DNA of 64,000 nucleotides from Rhizobium sp. Q54 (lineage in GTDB: Bacteria > Pseudomonadota > Alphaproteobacteria > UBA2966 > CAIVPW01), in assembly GCA_945947575.1 (NCBI GenBank), contig CAMEYM010000007.1:26862-90861 (forward strand), read 5' to 3'. The notes beneath the pieces are model-generated. The model was not told the DNA's origin. It saw only the letters and a program-made list of their open reading frames with translations, and searched no databases. Positions 1,215 through 38,310 of this stretch are shown one piece after another. The position numbers were made by a program, and so were the translations under genes. Within the stretch, counting starts at the first letter, position 1; every line of letters begins with the position of its first letter.

Positions 1215-1245
1215 TTCAGATGCTCAAATCTACAGTGGGTAGGGT

Positions 1246-2115: not shown

Positions 2116-2165
2116 GCTAGGCCCCCTTCATTATTCTCATCTGGATCGCGATGGCCGTCCCTGAC

Positions 2166-3056: not shown

Positions 3057-3058
3057 GG

Positions 3059-3760: not shown

Positions 3761-3770
3761 GCGCGAGGGC

Positions 3771-4466: not shown

Positions 4467-4482
4467 GGAATTCTGAAACCCC

Positions 4483-6011: not shown

Positions 6012-6016
6012 GGAGG

Positions 6017-7324: not shown

Positions 7325-7328
7325 GAGA

Positions 7329-9843: not shown

Positions 9844-10889
9844 CGCGAGGACGGTTGCAAGGCACGATATGGAACGACGGTGCGCCCGGCGGGAAACGGC
9901 ACTTCGGCGACGGCCTCGCCGCGGGCGAGGGCGACGATGTCGTCGTAGAGCGGTACGCCGGCGCAGATCGTCACGGTGACGCTGCCGCTCGGACGTGGAT
10001 TGATCTCGACGACGTACGGCATGCCGGCCGCGTCGAACATCACGTCGCAGTCGTACAGCCAGCTCAGATTGAAATGCTCGATCAGGCTCCGGCCGAGTTG
10101 CAGGAGTGCCGGACTGTTCACGACAGTATGCCCTTCGTTCGGCTGCTGCGAGTTCAGCCGTCTGCGTGCGACGACGCGAACGGGCTGGCCGTGCCAGCCC
10201 AGCATGTCGATGTCGTGCACGGGCTCTTCGAGACGCTGCATCACGATCGCTGGCAACGAAGACTCGCTGTGCGCCAGCAGGTGTTCGCGGTAGTAGGTGA
10301 CGCCGCAGTGGATCTCCCGCGCCCCCGGCAAAGGGGGCGCAACACCCTCGATATCCTTTTGGATAACCACAGCGCCGCGGCCACCGCGTCCGCCCGATGG
10401 CTTCACCACAGCCTCGCCACGCGCCTGCAGCATCTTGTCGACCGCCACGGTCAGCTGGGCGAGGGTGGTGACCTCGGTCCACTCTGGAACGGCAAGCCCG
10501 GCCCGGGCGATTGCTGCGTGCGTTGCCGCCTTAGAGGAGAACACCCGAATGGTCGCCGCGTCGGTGCACGCCAGCAGGCGGCCGCCCTTCTCGAGTGCCG
10601 CCCGGCCAGCGGACAGTGCGATCGCTTCCTCGTCCGACGAAGGCAGGACGATCTGCACGCCCTCCCGCTCGGCCACCGCGCGAACGGCGTCGACGTAGCC
10701 GGCTTCGGTGCCGCGCGGAACGACATGAAATGCATCGCAGAAGTGCCGTCCCACCGCCGACGGACTGGCATCGACGCCGACGGTTCGGATGCGGTAGCGC
10801 GTCGAGTTGCGCATGTACTGCAACGCCTGCGGCGCAAGCTCGCCGCCGACGCACGTCATCAACAGCGTGGCTTCAGGCTTCGAGGACAT
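9840..10889 (-). CDS. ATP-grasp domain protein (probable amide ligase)
   Basis: PSSDEE, VVKPSGGRGGRG, MQRL, EINPRPSGS. Confidence 0.85.
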   Translation of the reverse strand: MSSKPEATLLMTCVGGELAPQALQYMRNSTRYRIRTVGVDASPSAVGRHFCDAFHVVPRGTEAGYVDAVRAVAEREGVQIVLPSSDEEAIALSAGRAALEKGGRLLACTDAATIRVFSSKAATHAAIARAGLAVPEWTEVTTLAQLTVAVDKMLQARGEAVVKPSGGRGGRGAVVIQKDIEGVAPPLPGAREIHCGVTYYREHLLAHSESSLPAIVMQRLEEPVHDIDMLGWHGQPVRVVARRRLNSQQPNEGHTVVNSPALLQLGRSLIEHFNLSWLYDCDVMFDAAGMPYVVEINPRPSGSVTVTICAGVPLYDDIVALARGEAVAEVPFPAGRTVVPYRALQPSSR

Positions 10890-11925
10890 GCACGGGGACC
10901 GGGTCGTCGCATCGCAAGGCAAGGGGCGCGCGGCGACCGAGCACCTTGCCCCAATCGCGCGGCGCCAGACCGGACATGCCGGGCAGCGGACGCTTCAGGG
11001 CCAGGTTGCTCTCCTCGAAGGTTTCGCCGGCGGCAATGTCGCGCCCGGCGACGATGATCCGTCGGAAGCGTGGTGCCTGGCCGCGCTCTTGCTGCGTCAG
11101 CGTCTTGGCGTAGCTACCAAGCACGACGTGCGCATCGCGGACTCCGCGAACCAACTCCGCCATCCCCGCCTGATCCAGGGAGATGTGATGGTCGAAGCCG
11201 GGCCGCTTGGTGTCGAGGGTGAAGTGCTTCTCGATCATGCAGGCCCCGGCCGCGACGGCAAGCGCCGCTGCCGACGTGCCTACGGAATGGTCCGAGAATC
11301 CCACTGGAGCGCGGTAGCGCGCTTCCATCCAGCGCATTGCGCCGAGGTTGAGGTACTCCCGCGCCGTGGGGTACAGCGAGGTGCATTGGAACAGGCCCAG
11401 CTCCATTGCGCCGGCTTCCCGCGCCGCGGCCACTGCCTCGTCGATCTCGGCAGAATCGGCCATTCCGGTGGACATCAGTATGGTGCGCCCGGTGCGCGCC
11501 GCATGCTGCAGGGCGGGCACGTTCGTCAGGAGGCCGGACGAGATCTTGTGAGCCGCCGGTTCGAGGCGTTCGATCCAATCGATCGTCGGCGCGTCGCCAG
11601 CGGTAGTGAAGGCCTCCATCCCCAGGAAGCGCGCGAAGTCGAACATGGCCGCGGTGTCCTCGCGGCTCAGCACGGCGCGGCTGAACAGAAGGTAGCTCTC
11701 GGACCCACGCATATAGTTCTGGTCGGGATCCATCGTCTGCAGTTTGATCGCATCCGCGCCCGCGCGTGCGGCGGCCTCGATCATGGCCGCGCAGACAGAC
11801 GCGTCGCCTTCGTGATTGATGCCGATCTCGGCGATGACGGCTACAGGCTGGCCGACGCCAATCCGGCGGCGCCCGAAGCGGATTGCGGCCGCACTGCGCA
11901 AGAGATCAGAGGGCGACGATTGCAT
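10873..11925 (-). CDS. NeuB-family nonulosonate synthase (PseI/SpsE-like) with SAF domain
   Basis: IAEIGINHEG, DAIKLQT, KISSG, STGM, CTSLYPT, GFSDH, IEKHFTLD, RRIIVAGRDI. Confidence 0.92.
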   Translation of the reverse strand: MQSSPSDLLRSAAAIRFGRRRIGVGQPVAVIAEIGINHEGDASVCAAMIEAAARAGADAIKLQTMDPDQNYMRGSESYLLFSRAVLSREDTAAMFDFARFLGMEAFTTAGDAPTIDWIERLEPAAHKISSGLLTNVPALQHAARTGRTILMSTGMADSAEIDEAVAAAREAGAMELGLFQCTSLYPTAREYLNLGAMRWMEARYRAPVGFSDHSVGTSAAALAVAAGACMIEKHFTLDTKRPGFDHHISLDQAGMAELVRGVRDAHVVLGSYAKTLTQQERGQAPRFRRIIVAGRDIAAGETFEESNLALKRPLPGMSGLAPRDWGKVLGRRAPLALRCDDPVPVHVLEA

Positions 11926-15943: not shown

Positions 15944-17140
15944 CTAGGCGAATAGGGCCTGTATCTGACGTACGATGTCGCGGCCCTCAGCGATACGGAA
16001 TGACTCGCGGTCCTTGGGCTCCCGTGCAGGCGGCTCACCGTTCGCAAGCAACAAGGCGACGTTTGTCCGCAAGCGCTCCGGATCGCGGAGGTCGGAGAAA
16101 TAGTCCACGAAGGGCGCCAGGAGGGATTTCCCCTCGGCGGCGGCGGCCAGACCGGGCGAGTAGCGGACGTGGTCGATGGTGGGTACGCCGAGCGCAAACG
16201 CGTCGAGCAAGACCGTCGACGAGTAGTAGGCCAGCGCAAAGCGGGCGCCGCGCAGGAGCTGCAGGGGGTGCGCGTAGCTGATCACGTAGTTCGAGTAGCC
16301 GATCTCGTCGATCAGGCGTCGTAGGTGCGCCATGTCGGTCACCGGGTGCGGCTTGAACACGGTGCGAATCTGGTCGCAGAACGGCTTCAGCAGGGTGAGG
16401 ACTTCGCGCACCAGCGCGTCGGTATCCTTGTTGCCTGCGGCGGGATCCGGATTGAGGATGTTCTGCAGGACGAACAGGAAATAAGGGGCCTGAACGTCGG
16501 GTCCCAGCAGCCGCGTCCGCGTGCGATCCAAGAAGCGGAGCCATTCGGGCAGGATGCGCGGATAGCCGATCCAGACAGGCGTCGGGCCCGAGGGCGCGTG
16601 CGCCAGCCGCTCGCTCGTCAAGACGCCGTCGTAGTTGCGCAGGGTCGCGATCTTCTCCGCAATGCTCGGCTCGAGCTCAGCCTTGCGGCCGCGATCTGCC
16701 TGCCATCCCTGATTGGCGGCACGGAAGCGGGCGTCGATGAACTCCGGCATGACGCTCAGCATGGAGTAAACCGAACGGCCGCCATGTATCGCCCGGTTGA
16801 TGCGCGTCAGCACGGCGAAGAGCCCGCCGAATTCGGTCGTGGCGATGGCCACGCACCGGTGCAATAGGAGGACGCGAAGCAGCCAGATCGCCTTCAGCTT
16901 GCGCATCAGGACGTTGCCCGACGGCAGCGCCGTCAGTGTTGCTCCGATCGCTTCAATGCCGGCCATCAACGTGACGTTCTGGCGGATCGGCGACAGGTGC
17001 CGCTGTTGTGCCACGACGATGAGCGGCTTCTCGATCACACCGGCTGCGTGCAGCTCGACCAGCAGCGGCAGGGTGTTGTCGAGGAACTTCACCTTCTGCT
17101 TCAGCAGCACGACGCAACGCACGGGGGCTCTTGTTGGCAT
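15944..17140 (-). CDS. Uncharacterised protein with KPHP motif; candidate nonulosonate transferase
   Basis: Coupled ORF; IGYPR, VFKPHP, YYSSTVLLDAFALGVP, resembling the C-termini of GT-B ulosonate/CDP-glycerol transferases. Confidence 0.6.
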   Translation of the reverse strand: MPTRAPVRCVVLLKQKVKFLDNTLPLLVELHAAGVIEKPLIVVAQQRHLSPIRQNVTLMAGIEAIGATLTALPSGNVLMRKLKAIWLLRVLLLHRCVAIATTEFGGLFAVLTRINRAIHGGRSVYSMLSVMPEFIDARFRAANQGWQADRGRKAELEPSIAEKIATLRNYDGVLTSERLAHAPSGPTPVWIGYPRILPEWLRFLDRTRTRLLGPDVQAPYFLFVLQNILNPDPAAGNKDTDALVREVLTLLKPFCDQIRTVFKPHPVTDMAHLRRLIDEIGYSNYVISYAHPLQLLRGARFALAYYSSTVLLDAFALGVPTIDHVRYSPGLAAAAEGKSLLAPFVDYFSDLRDPERLRTNVALLLANGEPPAREPKDRESFRIAEGRDIVRQIQALFA

Positions 17141-18189
17141 CACTTGGGGTGCCACTGATGAACGTCCAGTTCGGCGCGTCCAAGGTCGTCCGGGCGTCCG
17201 ACGTCGAGCCAATACTCGTGGATAGGAAACAAGCCGACGCGCTTGTTCTGTTGCACCGCGCTACGCAGCAACTCGGGCATATCCAGGCGCACTGCGGGCT
17301 GCGCCAAGCGGTAGATTGAGGGCTCCAGGACATAAAGCCCGGCCGCGATAAAGTTCGAATAGCGGGGCTTTTCGCGGATGCCGACGATGTCGCCGTGGTC
17401 GTCGAGATCGAGGACGCCGAAGGGGACGTCGATCTCGTAGCGTGCCGCTCCCACCGTCGCGTCGCGGCCGCTGGTTTGATGGTGCACCATCATGGCTCCA
17501 TAGTCCGCGCGCGTCAGGATGTCTCCGTTGAGCACCAGTATTGGCCCATCGACGTTGCGGGGCAGAAGCGACAAGCCGCCCGCCGTGCCCATCGGCTGGG
17601 TCTCGGTCAGGACGTCAATCGCGGCGCGAAAGCCGGCTCCGGCGCAGTAGCTGCGAATCTGATCACCGAGGTAGTGCACGGTGACGAACACCCGCTGAAC
17701 GCCCTGTTCTTCAAGGTTGCGGACTAGGTGCCACAGGATGGGTTTGCCGCCAACCGAGAGCATGGGTTTCGGGGTGGCGCGGGTTCGTTCGCCCAGGCGG
17801 CTGCCGAAACCTCCGGCCATGATGACGGCTGTGTGCAGACCGGGCGTCTCCGGCGAATCGCTGACCATGCACACCAATCGATCCCGTGCGTCCAGCACGG
17901 GCACGCAGCGATGGCGGCCGCTGATGGTATCCAGCATGGCAATCGCTGCTGAAACCTCGCGTGCCACGATCGGCTTGCGGTGCATGCAGTCACGGATGGG
18001 TGAATCCAGTCCGACTCCCTGCACCAGTCCGCGCCGGATGTCGCCGTCGGTGGCGATGCCGACGACGCGCCGCTCGCCGTCGACCACGACCTGGACGAGA
18101 TGGGGTGTCGCGTTCAGGCGCGCAAGAGTCTCCCGGACCGTCGACGTCTCTGCCACGGTCAATGGATCGATGTTGTTGTCGACGATCAC
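17140..18189 (-). CDS. CBS-domain nucleotidyltransferase (PtmE-like, GDP-GlcNAc route)
   Basis: TDGDIRRGL (CBS), MAGGFGSRL...PKPM, GTAGGL, NGD, YWLDVG; GTG 18189 overlaps the upstream stop. Confidence 0.88.
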   Translation of the reverse strand: MIVDNNIDPLTVAETSTVRETLARLNATPHLVQVVVDGERRVVGIATDGDIRRGLVQGVGLDSPIRDCMHRKPIVAREVSAAIAMLDTISGRHRCVPVLDARDRLVCMVSDSPETPGLHTAVIMAGGFGSRLGERTRATPKPMLSVGGKPILWHLVRNLEEQGVQRVFVTVHYLGDQIRSYCAGAGFRAAIDVLTETQPMGTAGGLSLLPRNVDGPILVLNGDILTRADYGAMMVHHQTSGRDATVGAARYEIDVPFGVLDLDDHGDIVGIREKPRYSNFIAAGLYVLEPSIYRLAQPAVRLDMPELLRSAVQQNKRVGLFPIHEYWLDVGRPDDLGRAELDVHQWHPK

Positions 18190-18827
18190 AACGAGACGAA
18201 GCGCGAGAGGATCGACAAGCCGCTGCTGCCGCTTTTTTCGGGGTGGAACTGACAACCATAGTGATTGCGATCGTGAATCACGGCCGCGATACGATTGCTG
18301 TGGTAGTCGGCCTCGGCGAGCGAGCTCGCCGCCCGTTCGGGAACGACGGCATAGGAGTGCACGAAGTAGACCGACTCGTCTTCGCTGCAGTCGTGCAGGA
18401 TGGTGCCCCTCCAGTCCGCGCCCTCCGGCCGCCGCAAGGGGGTCCACCCCACGTGCGGCACTTTGTATGCCGGGCCACCAACTGGGGCGTCGGGGATGCG
18501 GCGCACGACGCCACGAATCGCGCCCAGACCCTTGTGGCGGCCGAACTCCTCGCTGTAATCGACCATCATCTGCATGCCCACGCATATGCCGAGGAAGGGG
18601 CGGTCCGTCATCAGGAAGCGTTCGAGGGCGCCGAACAGGCCGAGCGTCTCGAGCGTGTCCACACAATCGCCGAACGCACCGACCCCGGGTACGACAAGAC
18701 GTTCGGCGCGCGCGATCTCCGCTTCCTGCCGGACAATCTCGACCCCGGCACCGACGTGCGCCAGAGCTGCGTGCACCGAACGAAGGTTCCCAATGCCGTA
18801 GTCGAGGAGGGACACTTGGTGCGTCAT
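18186..18827 (-). CDS. HisH-like glutaminase subunit (glycan amidino module)
   Basis: DYGIGN, PGVGAF, GICVGMQ, YFVHSY, QFHPEKS. Confidence 0.9.
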   Translation of the reverse strand: MTHQVSLLDYGIGNLRSVHAALAHVGAGVEIVRQEAEIARAERLVVPGVGAFGDCVDTLETLGLFGALERFLMTDRPFLGICVGMQMMVDYSEEFGRHKGLGAIRGVVRRIPDAPVGGPAYKVPHVGWTPLRRPEGADWRGTILHDCSEDESVYFVHSYAVVPERAASSLAEADYHSNRIAAVIHDRNHYGCQFHPEKSGSSGLSILSRFVSL

Positions 18828-19633
18828 CCGCCGACTGCTCGCTGGTCGTCCGGTTGGACGACAGCGCGCTTGGCGACGCGGCGCACGGGGATCTCCACTG
18901 CGCCCATTTCCCGACGGACGTCGTCTAGGGCTAGGCGCCGATAGTGCAGCACGTCGGCCATCACCACTGCGTTGGCACGCCCGTCGCGGACTGCGCGAAT
19001 CGCGTGCTCGCCGCTGCCCATTCCACCCGAAAGCATCACGGGGATCGAAACCGCATCTGCGATCTGACGAGAGAGCTCCAGGTCAAAGCCGCGGCGCGTT
19101 CCCTCTTGGTCGACGGAAGTCACCAGGATCTCGCCGGCGCCGAGCTCGGCGCCGCGCCGGGCCCACTGCACGGCGTCGACGCCGCTGTGCTCGCGTCCGT
19201 TGTCGGTATATGCCTCCCAGCCGCCCGTGGGCCGCCGCTTGGCCTCGATCGACAGCACCATGCACTGAGAGCCGAAACGCCGAGCAACCTCGGCGATGAA
19301 TTCGGGACGTCGGATCGCCGCGGTATTCACCGCGATCTTGTCTGCACCCTTGCGCAGCAGGCCCTCGACGTCGGCGAGGGTGCGAACGCCGCCACCCGCA
19401 GTGATCGGCACGAACACACGGTCGGCGGTGTATGCGAGAAGGTCTTCAAGGGTGTTGCGTTGATAAAGGGACGCAACGGCATCCATGTAGATGATCTCGT
19501 CGATGCCTTCGTCATAGTAGCGGCGCGCGAACTCGCGCGGATCGCCCACCTTGCGCACGCCCTCGAGGTTGACGCCCTTGATCAGGTACGGCGCCTTGAT
19601 GTCGAGGCGCGCAATGAGACGTACGTTGCTCAC
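18824..19633 (-). CDS. HisF-like cyclase subunit (WbuZ-like)
   Basis: RLIARLDIK, GGGVRT, GADK, GAGEILVTSVDQEGT. Confidence 0.9.
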   Translation of the reverse strand: MSNVRLIARLDIKAPYLIKGVNLEGVRKVGDPREFARRYYDEGIDEIIYMDAVASLYQRNTLEDLLAYTADRVFVPITAGGGVRTLADVEGLLRKGADKIAVNTAAIRRPEFIAEVARRFGSQCMVLSIEAKRRPTGGWEAYTDNGREHSGVDAVQWARRGAELGAGEILVTSVDQEGTRRGFDLELSRQIADAVSIPVMLSGGMGSGEHAIRAVRDGRANAVVMADVLHYRRLALDDVRREMGAVEIPVRRVAKRAVVQPDDQRAVGG

Positions 19634-20974
19634 CTATGGCTGCGAGGCCGTATGGCGCAGGGTCCACTTGCCGTTCTCGTACTTCCATATGTGCGGGGAA
19701 CGGAAGCGATCGCAGAGGTGGTCGAAATACGCACGGTCGAGGACCGGCTGCTCGAACATCTTCGACGCGACCGGGAACTCCTCGACAGGCAACGACAGGT
19801 ACCGCAGCAGCTCATCGAGGAAGCGCTCAGGGTACTCGCCATCGAAGCGCCGCACCAACGCCACGGCCTCGTCGCGCGTGATGTCCTGGTTGCGCGTTTC
19901 TTGCGCGGCATCATAGGTGGCACGGCCGATGCCGAACTTGATGAACGTAGTGTAGTAGTGCAGGTCGTCGAGCTTGTCGTCGATTGAGTTGTACTTGCTG
20001 TAGGTGCCGACCGTCCGCTCGGGGGAGGCCCGGAAGTCGCTGTGCTGCACCGCGTGGTAGTAGGCCGCCTGCGGGTGCCAGCGCTCGTAATAGCCGATGT
20101 AATGGATCTGCACGCCGCACTCGCGCAGCGCATTGGTGTCGGCCGGCAGGTACCAGGCGTAGTCGACAGGCTCCAGGCCGTAGTCCGCCTCCAGCTGCGC
20201 CAGCGGAACGCCTCCCAAGAGGAACTCGGAGCGGCCCTCGGCGCTGAAATAGCGTGCGTCCCGTGAAGCCTGTTCGTTCTCCCGCACGGGGTTGCCGTAC
20301 TCCGCCTCGTTCTCGCCGTAGAAGACGAGCTGCACGTCGTGCAGCAGGGCAACCTTGGGCGCCAAGTTCTTCTGGCCCAGGATGAACGGCTGAAACGGGT
20401 GCAGCAGGTTCTCAACCGCAAGGCGCGTGAGCAGCCGATGCACCCGCGCGTTCGGCGAATGCAGGATATTGTCGTAACCCGCTCGGATCCAGGACTGCTG
20501 GTTGTGCCAGCCCCAGTCCGTGTAGATGTGCGGGGCCCAGGTGATCGTCAGCGGGTGCATGCCGTATTTGTGCTTCAGCAGCCAAGCGGCATAGAAGCTG
20601 TCCTTGCCGCCCGAGCCCGGGGCGATGCAGTCATAGCGACCGTCGTTGCGGCGGTAGCGGTCGCACAGCGCTCGCATTTCCTGGTCGCGGCTGCTCCAGT
20701 CGATGCCAGCCTTCTTTTGGGCGAAGTGACATGCATCGCATACGCCGTGGGCATCGAAGCGGATTGTGGACTTCTTCTCACCCTTGGCGTGCTTGAACTC
20801 GATGGAGGAACTCGGGCGCTGGTTGGAGATGACGCACGACCGGCAGAACTGGACGTCGGGCGGCAGACCGTACAAAGCCTCCGTCTCGTTCAGTCCTGGC
20901 GCAAATCGGCTCGTGTCGACAAGCTGATGGCGTGGATGACGCGCGCGCGATCCCGCGGCCGCTTCGACCTTCAT
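19634..20974 (-). CDS. N-acetyl sugar amidotransferase (PseA/WbuX/WbpG family)
   Basis: CRSCV, CDAC, SGGKDS PP-loop, YGENEAEYG, IDDK..DLHYY, KFGIGRA. Confidence 0.9.
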   Translation of the reverse strand: MKVEAAAGSRARHPRHQLVDTSRFAPGLNETEALYGLPPDVQFCRSCVISNQRPSSSIEFKHAKGEKKSTIRFDAHGVCDACHFAQKKAGIDWSSRDQEMRALCDRYRRNDGRYDCIAPGSGGKDSFYAAWLLKHKYGMHPLTITWAPHIYTDWGWHNQQSWIRAGYDNILHSPNARVHRLLTRLAVENLLHPFQPFILGQKNLAPKVALLHDVQLVFYGENEAEYGNPVRENEQASRDARYFSAEGRSEFLLGGVPLAQLEADYGLEPVDYAWYLPADTNALRECGVQIHYIGYYERWHPQAAYYHAVQHSDFRASPERTVGTYSKYNSIDDKLDDLHYYTTFIKFGIGRATYDAAQETRNQDITRDEAVALVRRFDGEYPERFLDELLRYLSLPVEEFPVASKMFEQPVLDRAYFDHLCDRFRSPHIWKYENGKWTLRHTASQP

Positions 20975-20982
20975 TACTCGTC

Positions 20983-22155
20983 TTACCTCGCGCCTTCGGC
21001 AGGTTGATGGACGTCGACAAAGCGTTTGCGAATCAGCGCCTTCGGGTCGGCGATGTTCTTCAATGCCGAGACGATGCGGGCCGACGTATGACCATCCCCA
21101 TAGGGGTTGACCACCGAGCGGCAATCGAGTTCGAACGCTTGGCGGATTGCTGACTCAATGGCGTCGGCCGCGGCAAGGCAATTGAGGATCGAGGCCGCTT
21201 GCTGCCGGCCGCGCTGGCGCTCACCGATGTTGACGGTGGGCTTCTGCAACGATGGCGCCTCCATGATTCCGCTCGACGAGTTGCCGACGACCGCGTCGAC
21301 TTGCGCCATCACGCTGAGATAGCGCAGTTGGCCGAGCGAGTTCATGAACAGGGCGTTGTCCCGCTCGCGGACGAACGCCTCGATCATCGGGAACAATGTT
21401 CGGCCGTGGGTATCGGCGTTCGGTCCGGTGAGGACGATTCCCACCTCCGGTCCGAGCCGATCCAGGGCGGTCAGCAGCTGCGCAAAGGGCATTGCCGGCG
21501 CCTGGTCCGCCAAGGTCTCCGGATGAAACGTGACGAGCACGTTCCTGGCGCGAAACCGGAATGCCAGATCGCGCTCGAGTTCCCCGCGGTCCAGCAGCTC
21601 GACGCGCCGCAGGTAGTCCAGGCCGGGGCTGCCGACGTCGTGAACCGACGCGGGGTTCTCTCCTAGCTGGCGCACGCGCTGCGCCGACGCGGCATTGGTG
21701 ACGAAGTGCACGTGCGACATCTTGGTGATGCTGTGGCGGATGGCATCATCGAACGCGCCCTCGGTCAGGTCGCCGCCGATCAGGTGTGCCACGGGGAGCT
21801 GCAGGACTAGCGCCGCTTGCGCCGCCGCAAACGTCTCGAAGCGATCACCCAGAAGCAAGACCATGTCGGGGTTCATGCGCGCGAAGGCTTCGGCCATCCC
21901 CATCGTGCCGAGTCCGATCGACTTGGCGATGCTGATCGGTGTATCTCCCGACAGCAGCATCTCGACGCGATCGGCGATCTCGAAGCCGTCCGCCTCGATG
22001 GCCTTCACGGTCAAGCCGAACTCGGGCGAAAGGTGTGTGCCCGTGACGAGCAGCCGGAGCTGCAGGTGCTCGTCGTCGCGGATGGCGCGCAGCACCCAGT
22101 ACAGGAGGCCGTAATCGCTCCTCGCTCCAGTCACCGCGCAAATCGTCCGCCGCAT
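20983..22155 (-). CDS. neuC: Hydrolysing UDP/GDP-GlcNAc 2-epimerase (NeuC/LegG)
   Basis: TGARSDYG, GTHLSPEFG, GDRFE, DDAIRHSITK, VTFHPET, GNSSSG. Confidence 0.92.
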   Translation of the reverse strand: MRRTICAVTGARSDYGLLYWVLRAIRDDEHLQLRLLVTGTHLSPEFGLTVKAIEADGFEIADRVEMLLSGDTPISIAKSIGLGTMGMAEAFARMNPDMVLLLGDRFETFAAAQAALVLQLPVAHLIGGDLTEGAFDDAIRHSITKMSHVHFVTNAASAQRVRQLGENPASVHDVGSPGLDYLRRVELLDRGELERDLAFRFRARNVLVTFHPETLADQAPAMPFAQLLTALDRLGPEVGIVLTGPNADTHGRTLFPMIEAFVRERDNALFMNSLGQLRYLSVMAQVDAVVGNSSSGIMEAPSLQKPTVNIGERQRGRQQAASILNCLAAADAIESAIRQAFELDCRSVVNPYGDGHTSARIVSALKNIADPKALIRKRFVDVHQPAEGAR

Positions 22156-22166
22156 CGTGCCTCGGA

Positions 22167-23168
22167 CTAGACCGCGTAATCCGTACGCGAGTAATGCGCG
22201 AGGTTGGCTGGATCGCGGAACCACTGCGCGGTCTTCGCCAGGCCGCGGCGGAAGCCCTCGATGCCACCGAATTGCGGCGACCAATCGAGCAGGCGCTTGG
22301 CCTTGCTGTTGTCCGCAAGCAGCCGCTCGACCTCGCTCCTGGCGGGGCGCAGGCGATCCATCTCGGTGGCGATTGTCGCCCGGACGCCCATGACATTGGC
22401 GATTTCCTTGGCCGTGTCGCCGATCGAAATTTCGAAGCCGCTGCCCAGGTTGACGACCTCGCCTAGGTTCTTGTCGCTCTTCAGGGCTGCGACAAACCCG
22501 GAAACGGTATCGTCGACGAAGCTGAAGTCGCGCGTCGGCGTCAACGCGCCGAGCTTCAGCTCCGTCATTCCGCGAGCGAGCTGTGAGATGATGGTTGGGA
22601 TCACCGCACGCAGGGACTGCCTGGGGCCGTAGGTATTAAAAGGCCGCAGGATCGTCACCGGCGCGCCGAACGATAGAAAGAACGAGCGGGCAATCTGGTC
22701 AGCGCCGATCTTCGACGCAGCGTACGGAGATTGCCCCACCAGGGCGTGCGCCTCGCTGATCGGCACGGCCTGCGCGGTTCCATACACTTCGCTCGTCGAG
22801 GTGTGAACGATCTTCTCGACCCCGAAGTCATGCGCCGCCTGGACGACGTTAAGTGTGCCGACGACGTTGGTTTGCACGTAGGACGTCGGTGCTCGATAGG
22901 AGTAGGGAATGCCGATCAGCGCCGCAAGGTGCAGCACTGCGGAGGCGCCGCGCACTGCGGAGCGCACGCAGTCTGCATCGCGAATGTCGGCGGGGACAAC
23001 CTCGAGCTTGCCGAGGTCGAGCTTGGTGCGGTCGAGCCAGCCCCACGAGCCGAACGAGTTGTAGTAGACCAGGGCACGCACCGCATGGCCGTCGCGGAGC
23101 AGCCGTTCGACGAGGTGGGAGCCGATAAAGCCGTCGGCGCCGGTGACGAGGATCGGCTTGCTTGTCAT
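22167..23168 (-). CDS. legB: NAD-dependent GDP-GlcNAc 4,6-dehydratase (LegB-like)
   Basis: TGADGFIGSHL, LAALIGIPYSY, TSTSEVYG, QSPYAASK, RPFNTYGPRQS.RAVIP. Confidence 0.88.
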   Translation of the reverse strand: MTSKPILVTGADGFIGSHLVERLLRDGHAVRALVYYNSFGSWGWLDRTKLDLGKLEVVPADIRDADCVRSAVRGASAVLHLAALIGIPYSYRAPTSYVQTNVVGTLNVVQAAHDFGVEKIVHTSTSEVYGTAQAVPISEAHALVGQSPYAASKIGADQIARSFFLSFGAPVTILRPFNTYGPRQSLRAVIPTIISQLARGMTELKLGALTPTRDFSFVDDTVSGFVAALKSDKNLGEVVNLGSGFEISIGDTAKEIANVMGVRATIATEMDRLRPARSEVERLLADNSKAKRLLDWSPQFGGIEGFRRGLAKTAQWFRDPANLAHYSRTDYAV

Positions 23169-24109
23169 GCGATCCTCGAAACAGGTGCGTCCTGAGTCTT
23201 CGCCACCAGCCGCTTGCCGATTGCCAGTGCCGGGGTGCTACCCGGGCCGACGACACCGCCCTCGACCGCCGCCATTTGGGTGACTCGGATGCTGCTCGTG
23301 CCGGTCTTCACGACGATGCTGCCGTGCTGACGTCCCACGACTTCGCCGGGAGTTGCCAGATATGCGGGCGCGCCAGGAATTGCCTCTGCCTGCAGGATGG
23401 CGACGACTTGGTCACCGACCATGGCGCGCGCGCCAGGCGCCGGTGGAGCGATGCCGCGTACGAAGTTGACGACGCGCTCGCTCGGCCACTGCCAATCAAT
23501 CCACTCGTCACCGTCGCGGCGACGTGGGCAGTAGAATCCGACCGGATGGATGCTCGCCTGCGGCGTGCGTTTCGCTGTACCGGCGGCGATATGGAGCACC
23601 GCCTCATGCAAGAGCGTGGCGCAGGCCCCCTCAGCCTTGGTCAGCACGCTCGCGTAGTCGTCGGTCGCGGAGATCGGAATGTGCTGCTGCAGGATGATGT
23701 CGCCCGTGTCTATTCCAGTATCGACATGGTGCACGGTGACCCCAAACGTCCTTTCCCCGTTGATGAGCGCCCAGTTAAGTACGTTGCGGCCGCGGTAGAA
23801 GGGCAGGGCGCCGGCGTGACAGTTGATGGTGGCCGCTGCATCCAGGAACGGAGCGCGGAAGATCTGATCGAATGACATCGACACATGCAAGTCGACCCCG
23901 AAGGGTCGCAACGCAGCCAGTGCCTCGGCCGAGTTGACGTCACGGAGGTGACGCGTCGGGATGCCTAGGCCCTCCGCCTGCTGCATGAGTTCGCGGTCGG
24001 GATTGTGGTAGCGCGGCACGACGACGGCGACCTGGACTCCCGCCGCCGTCGCGATCAGCGGCAGAGCGGATCGCGCCCAGCGGCCATCGCCGAAGTACGC
24101 GATGCGCAT
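23165..24109 (-). CDS. Sugar N-formyltransferase (Fmt-like)
   Basis: INCHAGALPFYRGRN, GVTVH, DTGIDTGDI, C-terminal Fmt_C-like region. Confidence 0.88.
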   Translation of the reverse strand: MRIAYFGDGRWARSALPLIATAAGVQVAVVVPRYHNPDRELMQQAEGLGIPTRHLRDVNSAEALAALRPFGVDLHVSMSFDQIFRAPFLDAAATINCHAGALPFYRGRNVLNWALINGERTFGVTVHHVDTGIDTGDIILQQHIPISATDDYASVLTKAEGACATLLHEAVLHIAAGTAKRTPQASIHPVGFYCPRRRDGDEWIDWQWPSERVVNFVRGIAPPAPGARAMVGDQVVAILQAEAIPGAPAYLATPGEVVGRQHGSIVVKTGTSSIRVTQMAAVEGGVVGPGSTPALAIGKRLVAKTQDAPVSRIA

Positions 24110-25179
24110 CAGATCAGGTCTTCCACCGCATAATCGCGCACCGCGGGCGTTCCCAGGCGCTCGAAGTAGTCCATCGGCGAGATGCCACTGCCCGGCCGCT
24201 TCACTGTTAGGTTGCGCTCGGTCAGGATTTCGCCGCGCGCAATGGACGTCGAAGCAACCAGGCTCTTTCGGGCGATCGCCAGGTTACGCTGCTCGGACCG
24301 CGATGGTTCTTTGATGCCTGAACCCAGCGCGCGCTCGACCTGCCGGATACTGGCGATCATGTCCCCCAGCTCGCGTGGCTCAAGGGAGGCAGCGTGGTCA
24401 GGCCCGGGCAGGGAGCGGCGCAGTGTGAAATGCTTCTCGATCACAGCCGCGCCGCGCGCGACCGCTGCGATCGATGCAACCATACCCGACGTGTGGTCCG
24501 AGTAGCCGACGCGCACCCCGAACGTGTCGCGTATCGTGTCCATTGCGCGCAGGTTGGCGTCCTCGATCGGAGCCGGATACTCCGTCGTGCAGTGCAGGAC
24601 GATGACACGCTCGCCGAGTTCGCGCCGTGCGTCCGGTTGCTCAATCGCCGACCGGAACGCAGCCAGGGACGGACGTGCGGTGGTCCCGCTGAATCCGAAA
24701 GCGAGAACGCCGAGCGCTGTTTCCACTTCCTGCAAGTCGGCCATGCCGGTCGAGAGGATTACCGGGAGCCCGGTCTTTGCCGCTGCCAAGAGCATCAACG
24801 GGTTGGTCACCTCGCCCGACGGGATCTTCAGGAAGGGCATGCGGAAGTTCGACACCAGGAAGCGCATGCTGCCCGGGTCGAACGGAGTGGACATAAAGGC
24901 GATCGACTTTGCGCGGCAGCGCTCGGCAAGCTTGGTGTGGAGGTCGGGGGAAAGCTCGAGGCGCCGCAGCATTGCATGCTGCGACTCCGATTCCCCTGTA
25001 TTGCGCAGCTGGTAGTCGGCCTTGAGTGCCGCGTGCGTCGCAAGGTCGTCTGCACGAAAGGTCTGGAACTTGACCGCATCGGCTCCAGCTGCCGCCGCGA
25101 CGTCGACCAGATCGAGCGCCAGTGCCTCGTCTCCGTTGTGGTTTACTCCCGCTTCGGCGATGACGAAGGTGTCGGTCAT
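24109..25179 (-). CDS. neuB: NeuB-family nonulosonate synthase (LegI-like) with SAF domain
   Basis: IAEAGVNHNG, DAVKFQTF, KIPSGE, LHCTTEYP, GYSDHT, EKHFTL.R.LPGPDH. Confidence 0.93.
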   Translation of the reverse strand: MTDTFVIAEAGVNHNGDEALALDLVDVAAAAGADAVKFQTFRADDLATHAALKADYQLRNTGESESQHAMLRRLELSPDLHTKLAERCRAKSIAFMSTPFDPGSMRFLVSNFRMPFLKIPSGEVTNPLMLLAAAKTGLPVILSTGMADLQEVETALGVLAFGFSGTTARPSLAAFRSAIEQPDARRELGERVIVLHCTTEYPAPIEDANLRAMDTIRDTFGVRVGYSDHTSGMVASIAAVARGAAVIEKHFTLRRSLPGPDHAASLEPRELGDMIASIRQVERALGSGIKEPSRSEQRNLAIARKSLVASTSIARGEILTERNLTVKRPGSGISPMDYFERLGTPAVRDYAVEDLI

Positions 25180-26387
25180 TTTCGTCCAAGCACCGCGCTG
25201 CTGGGCAAATTGATGAGGCGCGCAGCCACGTCCTCCGCCGTGCGGAGATCCATGCGCGGACACTCCTTGTACATTGCCAGGCGGTGCAGCAGGCGCCAAG
25301 CCGGGCGCGCACCATAGCCGGCGGCGGCGCAGGCCTCGAGCAACGGCGGCAGGTCGGCGGCATCCTCGAGCAACAGCGCGTTCAGCCAGTAATTCGAACG
25401 CGCGAAGTTCGCCTCCGTGAAGAGGCGAACACCATGTACGTGAGCGAACGCGCTTGCATAGCGTGTAGCCAGATTGCGCTTGTCTGCGAGAAACCGCTCG
25501 ATCTGCTCGAGCTGCGCGCATCCCAGCGCCGCGTTTATGTTCGGCAGCCGGTAGTTGAAACCGATTTCGTCGTGCACGTACTCCCAGCGGTGTGGGACTT
25601 TGGCGGTTGTGCTGAGATGCTTGGCGCGGCGCGCTAGTTCCGCGTCTTGAGTCAGGATCGCACCGCCGCCACCCGTAGTGATGATCTTGTTGCCGTTGAA
25701 GCTGAGCGCGGCAAGCGGCGCAAGCGTTCCGGTATGCTTGCCCTTGTAGTACGAGCCGAGCGACTCGGCGGCGTCCTCTACCAGCGCAATCCCCCAGGGC
25801 GCGCAGACCGCCTTCAATGCATCGAGATCGGCGGGATGCCCAAACGTGTGCACGCAGACCAGCGCGCGGATGGGCCGCCCGGTCTGCCGATTGAAGCAGA
25901 CGCCGCGCTCGACGCGCGCTACTTCGCGCAGTGCGTGCTCCAGCTGGCCCGCATCAATGCCGAGGGTGGTGGCGTCAATATCCGCGAAATGGCAGGTCGC
26001 GCCGGTATAGGCGACCGCGTTGGCAGTGGCCACGAACGTCAACGCGGGGATGATCACTTCGTCGCCGGCCCGCACGCCCAGTAGGTGGAGGCACAAGTGC
26101 AACGCCGCGGTGCCATTCGTCGTGGCAACGGCGAACGGGCTGCCCGTGAACGCCGCTAGGTCACGCTCGAACCGATCGACGTAGGCGCCGACCGACGAGA
26201 CCCAGCCGGTGTCGATACAGTCAAGAATGTAGGCGCGCTCGCGCCCTGCGAACTCAGGCTCGTGCAGAAATGCAGGATTCGGCACCACCCCGCGAAGCGC
26301 CCGCAGCACCTCCTCCGCGGCCATACCCTGGCGGCCGAGCCGGTTGTCGAGCGCCAGGCGTTGGCTGTCTTTCGTCACGGTGCTCAC
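25176..26387 (-). CDS. legC: LegC-like DegT aminotransferase
   Basis: LHEP, TGWVSSVG, NGTAALH, SFNGNKIITTGGGG, HDEIGFNYRLPNINAALG. Confidence 0.9.
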   Translation of the reverse strand: MSTVTKDSQRLALDNRLGRQGMAAEEVLRALRGVVPNPAFLHEPEFAGRERAYILDCIDTGWVSSVGAYVDRFERDLAAFTGSPFAVATTNGTAALHLCLHLLGVRAGDEVIIPALTFVATANAVAYTGATCHFADIDATTLGIDAGQLEHALREVARVERGVCFNRQTGRPIRALVCVHTFGHPADLDALKAVCAPWGIALVEDAAESLGSYYKGKHTGTLAPLAALSFNGNKIITTGGGGAILTQDAELARRAKHLSTTAKVPHRWEYVHDEIGFNYRLPNINAALGCAQLEQIERFLADKRNLATRYASAFAHVHGVRLFTEANFARSNYWLNALLLEDAADLPPLLEACAAAGYGARPAWRLLHRLAMYKECPRMDLRTAEDVAARLINLPSSAVLGRK

Positions 26388-28133: not shown

Positions 28134-29189
28134 TTACGGCGTGGCATGCGCTGTCTCGGCTGCCGACTCCGCCAGCATGTTGCGGAACTCGTGCTCGCCA
28201 ATCCAATGCGAGTTGGTGTTGCTCGCATACTGGAAGTCGTCGGGCACCGCCTTCTCACCGGGGAAGGCGGAGTAGTGGCTGTGGATGTTGGTCCGCACTA
28301 CGTAGCGGTCGGGAAGCTCGCCCGTCGTGCGCGCGTCCTCCGCCGTCAACATCATCTCGTGCAGCTTCTCGCCCGGGCGGATTCCTGTGATGTGGACTGG
28401 CAACTCGGGTGCCAGTGCGCGCGCGAGATCGACGATCTTCATCGACGGGATCTTGGGAATGAATATCTCGCTCCCCTGCATCGTCGCAAGCACCGAGACG
28501 ACAAGGTCGACGCCCTGCCGTAGCGTGATCCAGAAGCGCGTCATGCGTGGATCGGTGATTGGCAGGCTGCTGGCGCCTTCGCGCACCAGACGTTGGAAAA
28601 GCGGTACGACGCTGCCGCGCGAGCCGACCACGTTGCCGTACCGCACTACCGAGAAGATCGGGTTGCCGGAGCCGACGATTGCACGCGCCGCCATGAAGAT
28701 CTTGTCGGCCGCGAGCTTGCTCGCGCCGTAAAGGTTGATGGGGTTAGCCGCTTTGTCGGTGCTCAGCGCTACCACCTTTTCGACGCCGGAGCGGATCGCC
28801 GCGCGCACCACGTTCTCGGCCCCGTGCACATTCGTTCGAATGCATTCGAACGGGTTGTACTCGGCGGTTGGGACTTGCTTCAGCGCCGCCGCGTGGATGA
28901 CGTAGTCGACGCCACGGAACGCCATCTCGAGTCGTTCCGAGTCGCGCACGTCGCCAATGAAGTAGCGAATGTTGGCGGCGCCGCGGAACGGCGCCTTCTC
29001 GTTCATATCGTATTGCTTCAGCTCGTCGCGCGAAAAGACGATCACCTTCTTGGGCCTGTGCCGGGTGATGAGGGTCTCGACGAACTTCTGCCCGAACGAC
29101 CCAGTGCCTCCGGTCACGAGGATGGTGCGGCCGTCCAACTGATTGTTCGCGGTCCCGCCGGCGGGGACGTGTTCAGTTCCAGGTCTCAT
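28134..29189 (-). CDS. pseB: UDP-GlcNAc 4,6-dehydratase (inverting)
   Basis: TGGTGSFG, SRDELKQ, HAAALKQVPTAEYNP, STDKAANP.NLYGASK, GNVVGSRGSV, GIRPGEKLHE. Confidence 0.93.
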   Translation of the reverse strand: MRPGTEHVPAGGTANNQLDGRTILVTGGTGSFGQKFVETLITRHRPKKVIVFSRDELKQYDMNEKAPFRGAANIRYFIGDVRDSERLEMAFRGVDYVIHAAALKQVPTAEYNPFECIRTNVHGAENVVRAAIRSGVEKVVALSTDKAANPINLYGASKLAADKIFMAARAIVGSGNPIFSVVRYGNVVGSRGSVVPLFQRLVREGASSLPITDPRMTRFWITLRQGVDLVVSVLATMQGSEIFIPKIPSMKIVDLARALAPELPVHITGIRPGEKLHEMMLTAEDARTTGELPDRYVVRTNIHSHYSAFPGEKAVPDDFQYASNTNSHWIGEHEFRNMLAESAAETAHATP

Positions 29190-30448
29190 GGCTCATACCT
29201 TGCGGAGATTCCCATTCGTTCGAAGTCGGCGACGGGCACGCGGGCACCGCGTTGCACCGCCGCGACACGCCACACCTCGCGGAGGTCGGACGCGCGGGCG
29301 CGGGCGTCACATACGCGACCGACGTGAGCACGTCCGGCTTCTCCCATGCGCCGTACGGCGCCGCGATCCTTCTCTGCCCACTCTAGGCGATCGGCGCACG
29401 CCACTGGGTCGAATTGTCCGACTAGCCAGCCGCTGACGCAGTCGCGCAGGAAGCCGTCCCACGTCCCGGTCGCGAGCATCGGCAAGCCGGCGGCAAGCGA
29501 CTCGATGACGTCGCGTCCCCACGGGTCGTTACGGCGGGTGAGGCGCGCAGTCATGTCGGCGGCGGCGAGCACCGCCTCCGGGTTCTTCACGTGGCCGAGG
29601 AACAGCACCATGTCGCCGACGCCGCGGTCAGCCGCGTAGTCGGCGAGCGTCCTTCCGGCGCGCGCCAGTTCCCCCAGCGGCGCCGGGTCGCGCGGCGACA
29701 GCGTAGCGTCGCCGCCCACGACGAAGCGGAATTTGTCTCGTCGATGGCGCTTGGCGAGTTCGACGCAAATGTCGATCGCGCGGTCGAGTCCCCGGTCATA
29801 TTGGCCGTTGGCGAGGATGGCCACGTTGAGACGGCCATCGCGCGGGACATCCGGATGCGGGGCCGCGGCCTTTGGCGCTGCGGCAGCGTTGAAGATGATC
29901 GTGCCGCGCGCGGCGTCGCCTCCGACCTCGGCGAAGCGGTCGCGCTCGTTGCTCGTGATGAACACGAAGCGATCCATGACACGGGAAAACGCACGCGCCT
30001 GCGCTGCGACGGCCACGCTCGGGCGCGGACAATGACGCATGTGCAGAACGAATGCGGCATCCGTCTTGCGTCGCAGCCAAGCGGCAAAGAGGAGCAAGGA
30101 CTCATAGTTGAAGTGAATCACGTCGAAGTCGCGCGCCGACCGCGCCAAGCTCTGTAGCGCTCGCCGCCGGCGCAGCAGCTGGGATACACCCTCCAGCAGC
30201 GTCCGCACCGTGTAGCGTAGAGTGTTCTGCGCGCGGAACAACGGGATCTCGGGCGCCACCCGGCACGGAATGCCGATCGCGGCGTAGTCGGCGGTCAGGT
30301 CGCTGGGCCGGCGGCACCAGACCTCGATGTCGAGGTCCCGCCGGTCCATATCGGAGAGCAAGAAGTACAAGCTGCGCGAAGAGCCGCCGTGCCCCCCTTC
30401 ATGGTCGATCGCCAGCACGCGCAATCGCTTGAACGGAGGCGCGCTCAT
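29186..30448 (-). CDS. Glycosyltransferase family 4
   Basis: GGSSRS N-terminus; DPWGRDVIESLAAGLP (ExxxxGxP-like). Confidence 0.8.
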   Translation of the reverse strand: MSAPPFKRLRVLAIDHEGGHGGSSRSLYFLLSDMDRRDLDIEVWCRRPSDLTADYAAIGIPCRVAPEIPLFRAQNTLRYTVRTLLEGVSQLLRRRRALQSLARSARDFDVIHFNYESLLLFAAWLRRKTDAAFVLHMRHCPRPSVAVAAQARAFSRVMDRFVFITSNERDRFAEVGGDAARGTIIFNAAAAPKAAAPHPDVPRDGRLNVAILANGQYDRGLDRAIDICVELAKRHRRDKFRFVVGGDATLSPRDPAPLGELARAGRTLADYAADRGVGDMVLFLGHVKNPEAVLAAADMTARLTRRNDPWGRDVIESLAAGLPMLATGTWDGFLRDCVSGWLVGQFDPVACADRLEWAEKDRGAVRRMGEAGRAHVGRVCDARARASDLREVWRVAAVQRGARVPVADFERMGISARYEP

Positions 30449-31143
30449 CGGTTCGTATGCGTCACCTCGCGCTCGGCGAGGATGGCCCGGGCGAACAAGA
30501 GGTCGAGGTCGGTGTCGATGTCGATGGAGCGCTCCGGCGGCATCATGTAGGCCCGCGTCTCATCGGCAATGAAACGCCGCGTCTTCGCCAGCCAATTGGG
30601 CCGGGCCACGTACACTGCACCGTTGGGCGTGACGACCACGCTCGAGTCCTGACGGCGGGCCGAGTCTCCTGGCATCACCTTGCGGAGCGATCCCCTCGCG
30701 TCCACGGAATAGAACCATTCGAGGGGCTTCGACACCCGGGTCACCGAAACGCAGGCGGGTACATCCTCCGCTATGCAAGTGCGCACGCAGGCGTCGATAT
30801 CGGCACCGGTGCGGAACGGCGAAGTGGCTTGGAGGAGCACGATGTAGTCGTACGGCTCGCTGAGAGCCTCAAGTGCGTGGAACAGGACGTCGTAGATAGA
30901 GGCGGTATCTGTCGCGAGCGTGGCGGGACGCTGAAAAGGCACCTCACAGCCGCAGGATCCTGCCACCGAGGCGATCTCATGGTCGTCCGTCGACAGGATG
31001 ACGCGCGAGAGGGTCGTGGCTTCCGCGGCGGCCGCTACGGACCAGACCACCAGCGGCCGCCCGCCCAGGTCGAGCACGTTCTTCCTCGGCAGGCCCTTCG
31101 AGCCGCCGCGAGCGGCGATGACCGCCAGGGTTCGCGGTTTCAC
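30445..31143 (-). CDS. neuA: Acylneuraminate cytidylyltransferase (NeuA/LegF-like)
   Basis: ARGGSKGLPRKN, STDD, LQATSPFR, PNGAVY, SIDIDT; GTG start at 31143. Confidence 0.92.
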   Translation of the reverse strand: MKPRTLAVIAARGGSKGLPRKNVLDLGGRPLVVWSVAAAAEATTLSRVILSTDDHEIASVAGSCGCEVPFQRPATLATDTASIYDVLFHALEALSEPYDYIVLLQATSPFRTGADIDACVRTCIAEDVPACVSVTRVSKPLEWFYSVDARGSLRKVMPGDSARRQDSSVVVTPNGAVYVARPNWLAKTRRFIADETRAYMMPPERSIDIDTDLDLLFARAILAEREVTHTNR

Positions 31144-31354
31144 AAGAAGACGCCGAGGAGTTAAGAGTATCTGGGCTGGAGGCGGCCCGCAGGGCTTGCC
31201 CACGCTGCCGCAGCGCGGGTGACAGGCACCCGGCGCAAGCTCGGACCCTCTCAGGTCGCCAGGCCCGCTGTCAACCCTGCGCAATCCAGGAGTCGGGCGG
31301 TTTCCTTGCGCGGACCGATGGCGTCCCGCTAGTGTCACCCCCGGGGCCCCTCCT

Positions 31355-32794: not shown

Positions 32795-32822
32795 CCGACA
32801 CTTCATCTTCCTCGGAAGGCCG

Positions 32823-33722: not shown

Positions 33723-33745
33723 TCGAGGTAGGCTTCACCGCGAAG

Positions 33746-35667: not shown

Positions 35668-35680
35668 GGACGCTGGCGCC

Positions 35681-38205: not shown

Positions 38206-38310
38206 GCTTCGCTGCCGCTCCAAGAACTGTTTGCCATTTCTGCCGCCCGGCTGCAATGAAGTCGTGGTCCAACAGTGGCGCGAGCAATACAGGAACCTTC
38301 GCCTTTGGCA

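Follow-up and report, generated by a model that had tools for sequence, protein, structure and literature searches.

Nonulosonic acids occur on flagella, lipopolysaccharides (LPS), capsules and S-layers, where their N-acyl groups set charge, antigenicity and recognition by phages and lectins. The pathway to legionaminic acid (Leg) of the Campylobacter jejuni and Legionella type relies on LegB, LegC, LegH, LegG, LegI and LegF, with PtmE and, for 5-acetamidino-7-acetamido-legionaminic acid (Leg5Am7Ac), PtmG. The DNA analysed here, a 64-kb window of the 216-kb contig CAMEYM010000007.1 (Rhizobium sp. Q54) derived from a lake-water metagenome, has counterparts, or for PtmE and LegF candidate counterparts, of these proteins except LegH, the LbH-type (hexapeptide-repeat) 4-N-acetyltransferase. 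Directly after its NeuB gene it carries an ArnA/Fmt-type formyltransferase, at the place where three clusters of other genomes (L086, L087 and L089) have an LbH protein. We give slightly more than even weight to the reading that the Leg branch of this locus makes cytidine monophosphate (CMP)-activated 5-acetamidino-7-formamido-legionaminic acid (CMP-Leg5Am7Fo), with the formyltransferase doing the job of LegH.

A formyltransferase standing in for an acetyltransferase has a precedent in the pseudaminic acid (Pse) series. Indeed, PseJ is established as the enzyme that replaces PseH to give 5-acetamido-7-formamido-pseudaminic acid (Pse5Ac7Fo), according to PMC11040635, in which the Anoxybacillus PseJ structure (PDB 6ci2) is also cited. 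In both systems a formyltransferase of the N10-formyl-tetrahydrofolate (THF) type would take over from an N-acetyltransferase, PseH there and presumably LegH in the window, on the C4 amine introduced by a DegT-type aminotransferase, to yield a 7-N-formyl nonulosonic acid. The two differ in the sugar series and in the enzymes themselves, PseJ being a single-domain protein of ~190-220 amino acids (aa) whereas the window enzyme has two domains and 314 aa. The N-terminal domain of ArnA, the UDP-Ara4N formyltransferase, shares the Asn-His-Asp triad and the two-domain architecture with the window enzyme and acts on a nucleotide-linked 4-amino sugar. However, the sequences are only ~26% identical, the window enzyme is devoid of the decarboxylase domain fused to ArnA, and the pathway and the nucleotide sugar are different.

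Gene content of the Leg block

Genes were fixed by translation of open reading frames (ORFs) combined with hidden Markov model (HMM) coordinates from profile scans against NCBIfam and Pfam. In the window, whose G+C content is ~65%, the genes called from ~31143 to the left edge are closely packed and all lie on the minus strand, which is the orientation of every feature given below with coordinates up to 31143. Most junctions in this region are 4-nt ATGA or GTGA overlaps, which argues for a single translationally coupled array, and the best explanation of the Leg block is that it constitutes the legionaminic acid branch of this ~29-kb surface-glycan gene array.

The list and order of genes that the earlier note had drawn up between 18186 and 26387 were confirmed throughout by ORF translation and HMM scans. 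The block opens with legC (25176..26387, starting with GTG at 26387 or ATG at 26324), which encodes the pyridoxal phosphate-dependent aminotransferase for the C4 amine of a nucleoside diphosphate (NDP)-6-deoxy-hexose (TIGR04181, 528 bits, cutoff 420; Pfam DegT_DnrJ_EryC1, 2e-89). It is followed by neuB/legI (24109..25179), coding for the nonulosonic acid synthase that catalyzes the condensation with phosphoenolpyruvate (PEP) (TIGR03569, 459 bits, cutoff 400; Pfam NeuB and SAF) and whose product is 45-61% identical to NeuB from Leg clusters of other genomes. The gene of the two-domain ArnA/Fmt-type N-formyltransferase (23165..24109; Pfam Formyl_trans_N and Formyl_trans_C) overlaps neuB by 1 nt and, by 4 nt, legB (22167..23168), the gene of the NAD-dependent 4,6-dehydratase of NDP-N-acetylglucosamine (NDP-GlcNAc) (TIGR04180, 481.6 bits, cutoff 475). 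Then comes neuC/legG (20983..22155), encoding the hydrolysing NDP-sugar 2-epimerase (TIGR03568, 443 bits, cutoff 236; Pfam Epimerase_2). LegB, LegC, LegG and LegI of a C. jejuni-type GDP pathway are therefore all represented above the NCBIfam cutoffs, with the reservation that the TIGR03568 and TIGR03569 models behind LegG and LegI cannot tell Leg from Neu specificity.

Two further genes are candidates for the nucleotidyltransferase and the CMP synthetase of this set. Directly downstream of hisH, and unremarked in the earlier note, lies a gene for a PtmE/LegX-like protein combining CBS and nucleotidyltransferase domains (17140..18189; Pfam CBS and NTP_transferase), the presumed supplier of a GDP-linked hexosamine; the concept of LegX as a marker is that of bioRxiv 10.1101/2022.03.25.485807. 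The first gene of the array (30445..31143) encodes a LegF/PseF-like CMP-nonulosonate synthetase (Pfam CTP_transf_3; best NCBIfam match PseF, with 136 bits for a cutoff of 206), whose homologues come after PtmE in clusters of the formyl type. A second CTP_transf_3 cytidylyltransferase was found by Pfam scan at 8129-8875, and both score below the equivalog cutoffs.

Between neuC and the ptmE-like gene is a set of three genes that are contiguous or overlapping. The first encodes a WbuX-family N-acetyl-sugar amidotransferase, the enzyme type that converts an acetamido into an acetamidino group (19634..20974; TIGR03573, 335 bits, cutoff 203). With a 0-nt gap, it is followed by a gene for a HisF paralogue (18824..19633), the WbuZ-like partner for ammonia channelling (Pfam His_biosynth), which scores 271.9 bits against hisF and 264.5 bits against WbuZ (WbuZ cutoff 299.7), in both cases just below the cutoff; this gene overlaps by 4 nt that of a WbuY-like, HisH-type glutaminase (18186..18827; TIGR01855, 187.5 bits, cutoff 105; Pfam GATase). 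The WbuX/WbuY/WbuZ arrangement, in which a WbuX-type protein stands beside HisH- and HisF-type subunits, is thus present, the HisF subunit being near threshold only. An assignment of hisH and hisF to the histidine pathway was rejected because these genes directly adjoin wbuX and ptmE or overlap with them, and because HisF is under its equivalog cutoff.

Orthologues of the three proteins, with 55-68% identity overall and 55-64% for WbuX, are found in clusters of the formyl type (L007/L084, L034, L044, L074 and L029) but also in an LbH-type cluster, L087. Their presence in both formyl- and acetyl-type clusters fits an action on N5 whatever the acyl group at N7. Furthermore, the module requires an acetamido group and, in clusters without an acetyltransferase, the only one on offer is the N5-acetyl derived from GlcNAc, which favours a formyl group at N7.

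The earlier note had claimed that no hexapeptide-repeat acetyltransferase is encoded in the window, and three approaches bear this out. A tblastn search of the 64 kb, with the PglD/NeuD-type LbH domain of a natural formyltransferase::LbH fusion (P0041) as query, returned a best E value of 0.16; a six-frame scan of the window for hexapeptide periodicity yielded nothing near the positive control; and Pfam scans of selected main ORFs over the 64 kb gave zero Hexapep matches. No counterpart of the LbH 4-N-acetyltransferase LegH of the C. jejuni-type GDP pathway was thus found within the 64 kb.

The formyltransferase

The formyltransferase has the features of a functional enzyme. Residues N96, H98 and D134 are invariant across 29 aligned homologues and align with the core of the ArnA formyltransferase; the motif, which reads NCHAGALPFYRGRN...GIDTGDI, matches the Asn-His-Asp triad known from both ArnA and Fmt, and a folate motif of the HxxxLPxxRG type is present as well. 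By sequence, the closest solved relative is the formyltransferase domain of ArnA (E 2.7e-25), and the same domain (5j63) is the best Foldseek match (E 2.5e-26, TM 0.78-0.83) of an AlphaFold2 (AF2) model with a pLDDT of 91.2. Pfam, AF2 and Foldseek agree on a two-domain fold with an N-terminal Rossmann-like and a C-terminal OB-like domain. The similarity to PseJ (PDB 6ci2/6ci4), in contrast, has an E value of 1e-7 and covers residues 72-158 only, that is, the catalytic core, which places the window enzyme outside the PseJ family. Judging from its residues and its modelled fold, the protein is very probably active as a two-domain, ArnA/Fmt-type transferase that depends on N10-formyl-THF, and its gene context predicts that the formyl group would be transferred to an NDP-amino sugar. 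A tblastn search of a plasmid collection with the formyltransferase gave no match.

The name that source annotations give to such proteins is methionyl-tRNA formyltransferase, and the model superposes on the fold of Fmt (TM 0.80-0.84) as well as on that of ArnA. A housekeeping role is nevertheless extremely unlikely, and the fmt identity was rejected: the score against TIGR00460 (fmt) is 107.7 bits for an equivalog cutoff of 201.5 (the protein is also below the ArnA cutoff), the gene overlaps both neuB and legB inside a glycan operon, and its synteny with Leg genes is conserved over many phyla, as described hereafter.

Distribution and synteny of the family

The protein database contains thousands of homologues of the formyltransferase, the nearest being 50-58% identical, and the sources that name them nearly always say methionyl-tRNA formyltransferase. 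Given the constant Leg-cluster context, this label is probably a systematic misannotation. A family-motif scan in which each GTDB species was represented by one genome identified at least 295 relatives spread over many phyla, and the window proteins were mapped onto the best 80 of these 295 loci, all from other genomes. NeuB was recovered in 73 of the 80, PtmE in 69, the CMP synthetase in 65, NeuC in 64 and LegC in 62, while LegB was present in 50 and a PglF/PseB-like dehydratase in 17 more. The prevailing order runs LegB (or PglF-like)-LegC-NeuC-NeuB-Fmt-PtmE-CMP synthetase, with NeuB immediately upstream of the formyltransferase in 46 loci and PtmE immediately downstream in 43. A PglD-type LbH protein within 10 kb was observed in only 13-16 of the 80 loci, and a PseB-like match with at least 40% identity in 2 only.

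Two related loci are compact. In L084, an alphaproteobacterial metagenome-assembled genome (MAG), a single operon reads LegB-LegC-NeuC-NeuB-Fmt-PtmE-CMP synthetase-WbuX-HisF-HisH, with neither LbH nor GNAT within 10 kb. In L085 (Geomesophilobacter), the order LegB-LegC-Fmt-NeuC-NeuB is that of the pathway, with the formyltransferase at the LegH step. The arrangement seen in the window is thus one instance of a widespread, mislabelled and uncharacterised type of cluster, of which the amidino module makes a particular variant. Cultured carriers of this cluster type include Bradyrhizobium lupini BA2, Geomesophilobacter sediminis Red875, Vibrio hepatarius DSM 19134, Pseudoalteromonas citrea DSM 8771 and Helicobacter cinaedi CCUG 18818.

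What occupies the corresponding position in canonical Leg clusters was examined in three clusters fetched starting from LbH homologues. L086, a Rhodospirillales MAG, reads LegB-LegC-NeuC-NeuB-LbH-PtmE-GFO-DegT-CMP synthetase, and L089 (Anaeroarcus) reads NeuC-PIG-L-NeuB-LbH-PtmE-GFO-CMP synthetase in its distal part. The PglD/NeuD-type LbH protein comes immediately after NeuB in all three, with PtmE next in two (L086 and L089), and in these two clusters NeuB is 53-61% and LegB 52-61% identical to the window protein. The position most often taken by the formyltransferase family is therefore NeuB-[X]-PtmE, held by LbH in L086 and L089, which argues for a functional replacement of LegH and is the strongest evidence available. 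The proposal of the earlier note that a formyltransferase stands where LegH is expected thereby gains the support of both the canonical slot and the synteny in 80 loci.

Which sugar and which nitrogen are formylated

A formylation at N7 of Leg is not without observations that weigh against it, and the first of them concern the whereabouts of LegH. In C. jejuni, legH is located away from the leg block, close to the locus for pseudaminic acid (SugarBase preprint, bioRxiv 10.64898/2026.04.20.719630), and a legH gene may likewise lie elsewhere than in the 64 kb under view, since this is a limited part of a 216-kb contig. The locus would then make ordinary Leg5Am7Ac through an unlinked LegH, and the formyltransferase would have a different sugar of the glycan as its substrate or give rise to a minor variant. 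In keeping with this, the island encodes numerous tailoring enzymes and other aminotransferases, among them a GSA-like one (6017-7324). We regard this as distinctly unlikely in view of the tight synteny with the Leg core across the whole family and of the compact loci L084 and L085, which have no other 4-amino-sugar pathways. Next, the formyltransferase adjoins an LbH protein in ~8 related loci and is fused to one in P0041, which indicates that the two are not strictly alternatives. Finally, no biochemical characterisation of the family was found in the open-access literature searched or is known to us.

Other observations in this group point to the other nitrogen. The sole formyl-Leg assigned by nuclear magnetic resonance (NMR) in the literature searched is the 5-N-formyl-Leg of Halorubrum sp. 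PV6 (PMC6137143). As far as the description of its cluster allows a comparison, this organism resembles the window in having a leg cluster with a predicted formyltransferase and an N-formyl Leg in its glycan (PMC6137143), but the formyl group is on N5 and a NeuD-type LbH gene (neuD) is beside the formyltransferase gene, whereas the window has no LbH and has an amidino module. Moreover, a PIG-L deacetylase encoded at 3059-3787 of the window could permit re-acylation at N5. Formylation might then target the C2 amine, that is, the future N5, either on GDP-glucosamine made by PtmE or after deacetylation by PIG-L, and the product would be a 5-N-formyl-Leg whose N7 is free or carries an acetyl group added by an unlinked LegH or the GNAT of the window. 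The 43 loci in which PtmE immediately follows the formyltransferase agree with this, as does the minority with Fmt and LbH adjacent or fused. So does Candidatus Kuenenia stuttgartiensis, whose CMP-nonulosonic acids carry one formylated and one free amine by mass spectrometry and whose leg-like cluster includes a deacetylase and a formyltransferase (SugarBase preprint, bioRxiv 10.64898/2026.04.20.719630). The likeness to the window extends to the presence of a formyltransferase in a leg-like cluster, and the anammox relative Candidatus Jettenia (L047) has a member of the family with 47% identity; the differences are the free second amine and the deacetylase of the Kuenenia cluster, as opposed to the amidino module of the window and a PIG-L gene at a distance of 15 kb, where the array has its Pse-tailoring part.

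Formylation at N5 nevertheless appears rather unlikely to us. Most clusters, the compact L084 among them, lack both a deacetylase and any other N-acyltransferase, which would leave N7 bare, and WbuX would be left without an acetamido group to amidinate. The position of the window enzyme in the LegH slot of canonical clusters and the activity of ArnA, its closest solved and nearest characterised relative, on a 4-amino sugar nucleotide both favour N7. A neighbour-joining tree groups all the LbH-adjacent enzymes in a single clade (Firmicutes, Helicobacter and others), apart from the alphaproteobacterial clade of the window enzyme. Finally, PIG-L is usually paired with a second, divergent formyltransferase, which was found beside it in 7 of the 12 PIG-L-carrying loci; this suggests that the editing of N5 is the task of a separate pair of enzymes, leaving the main formyltransferase for N7.

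In many relatives, the PIG-L gene and the second divergent formyltransferase gene are located between those of NeuC and NeuB (L034, L037, L039, L050, L056, L072 and L080, listed together with the P0041 fusion). Relatives with a Fmt::LbH fusion, or with PIG-L and a second formyltransferase, suggest the existence of di-N-formyl or N5-free legionaminic acids.

The pseudaminic acid set and the tailoring genes

The same minus-strand array contains a Pse gene set interleaved with that of Leg, so that a single operon seems to specify two distinct nonulosonic acids. This set had been missed by the earlier note, together with the PIG-L deacetylase and the two CMP-sugar synthetases. pseB (28134..29189), for the first enzyme of the branch, scores 491 bits against TIGR03589 (cutoff 408) and pseC (14737-15942) 438 bits for a cutoff of 423. 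A pseG-like gene (13723-14733) reaches 116 bits against PseG, below the cutoff of 153, and a second NeuB-family synthase (10873..11925; Pfam NeuB and SAF), the candidate PseI, scores 269 bits with NeuB_NnaB and 245 bits with PseI, both under the cutoffs. As for the N-acyltransferase of this branch, no PseH was found above threshold, a further point on the side of the objections raised above. The best candidate is a GNAT acetyltransferase (5442..6125, with a true start probably near 6008; Pfam Acetyltransf_3, 4.5e-22) whose best NCBIfam match, PseH, gives 43.7 bits for a cutoff of 93.

It may thus be asked whether the formyltransferase serves the Pse branch as a PseJ-like enzyme, making Pse5Ac7Fo, while Leg receives its acetyl group from the GNAT or an unlinked LegH to give Leg5Am7Ac. 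The presence of PseB, PseC, PseG-like and PseI-like proteins in the same array without an above-threshold PseH, and the precedent of PseJ in the place of PseH, speak for this scenario. It is however very unlikely: the gene is flanked by, and overlaps, neuB and legB; it travels with Leg genes in the 80 loci, with PseB-like matches in two of them only; the similarity to PseJ is marginal and restricted to the core of a single-domain protein of ~200 aa; and the best match of the GNAT is PseH. More generally, each of the two pathways needs one N-acyltransferase for its C4 amine and the window has exactly two candidates, the formyltransferase and the GNAT. That the latter matches PseH best and that the former is syntenic with Leg genes counts for the formyltransferase acting in the Leg branch. 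The presence of the GNAT stated by the earlier note holds, but the fallback role that the note gave it, as an acetylator of Leg, is less likely since the Pse pathway encoded alongside has no other PseH candidate.

The PIG-L gene, identified by Pfam scan, is part of a set of tailoring genes that covers 3-10922 (minus strand) and that includes, from profile scans, a GSA-type aminotransferase (6017-7324) and an AsnB-type amidotransferase cut by the window edge (3-1223). Also present are the second cytidylyltransferase (8129-8875), three methyltransferases, one of them TylF-like, an aldo-keto reductase, two 2-hydroxyacid dehydrogenases and an ATP-grasp enzyme. This set suggests that one of the sugars is further decorated with N-acyl or O-methyl groups. 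Between pseB and legC, a gene overlapping legC by 4 nt (26384-28132) encodes an MsbA/PglK-like ABC exporter with the permease fused to the ATPase, which may act in glycan flipping or export.

Two proteins of the array escaped family assignment. The first, an orphan of 398 aa encoded between ptmE and pseC (15944..17140), has no match in Pfam, NCBIfam or PDB sequences. Its AF2 model (pLDDT 91) has a GT-B fold, and Foldseek relates it distantly to GT1 glycosyltransferases and UDP-GlcNAc 2-epimerases (E ~1e-9, TM 0.44-0.55). An exhaustive search among 1.8 billion representatives returned 302 relatives where a word-index search gave none. This protein is a candidate glycosyltransferase, namely a candidate nonulosonate transferase. 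The second, of 606 aa, is encoded by a gene (11906-13726) flanked by the pseG-like gene and the second neuB, with a strong coding signal; searches of Pfam and NCBIfam gave nothing and that of PDB sequences no meaningful match.

Flanking genes

Divergent from the array, the plus-strand genes at 31223-37240 encode a GT-C-like membrane protein (weak PMT_2/GT87 matches), a methyltransferase, a UbiA prenyltransferase, a HAD hydrolase and a GMC oxidoreductase, a combination reminiscent of the pathways that provide polyprenyl-phospho-sugar donors. Further on, a sulfotransferase-domain protein is encoded amid glycosyltransferases (38260-39135, plus strand), hinting at a sulfated glycan. A prophage remnant is found at 48114-54926, with a phage integrase, a Gp157-like protein, a terminase large subunit and a ParB-N DNA methylase, and with a somewhat lower G+C content (0.61-0.63). 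It separates the glycan island from pgm, ugd, waaA and wecA-like genes, and a tRNA-Gln is located at 62901-62975. With glycan genes, the prophage remnant and pgm, ugd, waaA and a WecA-like gene on its right flank, the island looks related to LPS or another surface polysaccharide.

Discussion

The route that we propose for the Leg branch is as follows. A PtmE/LegX-type nucleotidyltransferase would supply NDP-GlcNAc, probably GDP-linked, which LegB would dehydrate and LegC would aminate at C4. The ArnA/Fmt-type, N10-formyl-THF-dependent formyltransferase would then, in place of an LbH-type LegH, formylate this C4 amine, the future N7. NeuC (LegG) would release 2-acetamido-4-formamido-2,4,6-trideoxy-mannose, and its condensation with PEP by NeuB (LegI) would give 5-acetamido-7-formamido-legionaminic acid (Leg5Ac7Fo). 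WbuX, with ammonia provided by the HisH and HisF paralogues, would turn the N5 acetamido group into an acetamidino group, and a CTP_transf_3 enzyme would activate the sugar to CMP-Leg5Am7Fo. In this scheme we infer the substrate of the formyltransferase, the position of the formyl group, the point at which amidination takes place and the final product from the genes and their arrangement.

A 5-acetamidino-7-formamido-legionaminic acid had been put forward by the earlier note as a possible product. The comparative evidence supports this as the best reading of the locus, with a predicted product whose formyl group is more probably on N7 than on N5. For Leg5Ac7Fo, Leg5Am7Fo, 5-formamido-7-acetamido-legionaminic acid (Leg5Fo7Ac) and 7-formamido derivatives in general, the open-access literature searched yielded only Pse5Ac7Fo structures, which is not a proof of absence. 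If made, Leg5Am7Fo would be a derivative absent from that literature.

Beyond this locus, we hold it to be an evenly balanced question whether the ArnA/Fmt-like family, with its at least 295 species representatives, is as a whole a general LegH-replacing N7-formyltransferase, such that 7-N-formyl-Leg is widespread but overlooked and the window makes CMP-Leg5Am7Fo. If this holds true, a single recognisable gene would mark many producers of 7-N-formyl-Leg, including Bradyrhizobium, Vibrio, Pseudoalteromonas, Helicobacter cinaedi, anammox bacteria and SAR86, and a systematic misannotation as fmt would be corrected. The family would also provide a candidate enzyme for the chemo-enzymatic synthesis of formyl-Leg donors. 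Finally, it would follow that the two nitrogens of legionaminic acid are edited by separable gene modules, N7 receiving an acetyl or a formyl group and N5 being acetylated, amidinated, deacetylated or re-acylated.

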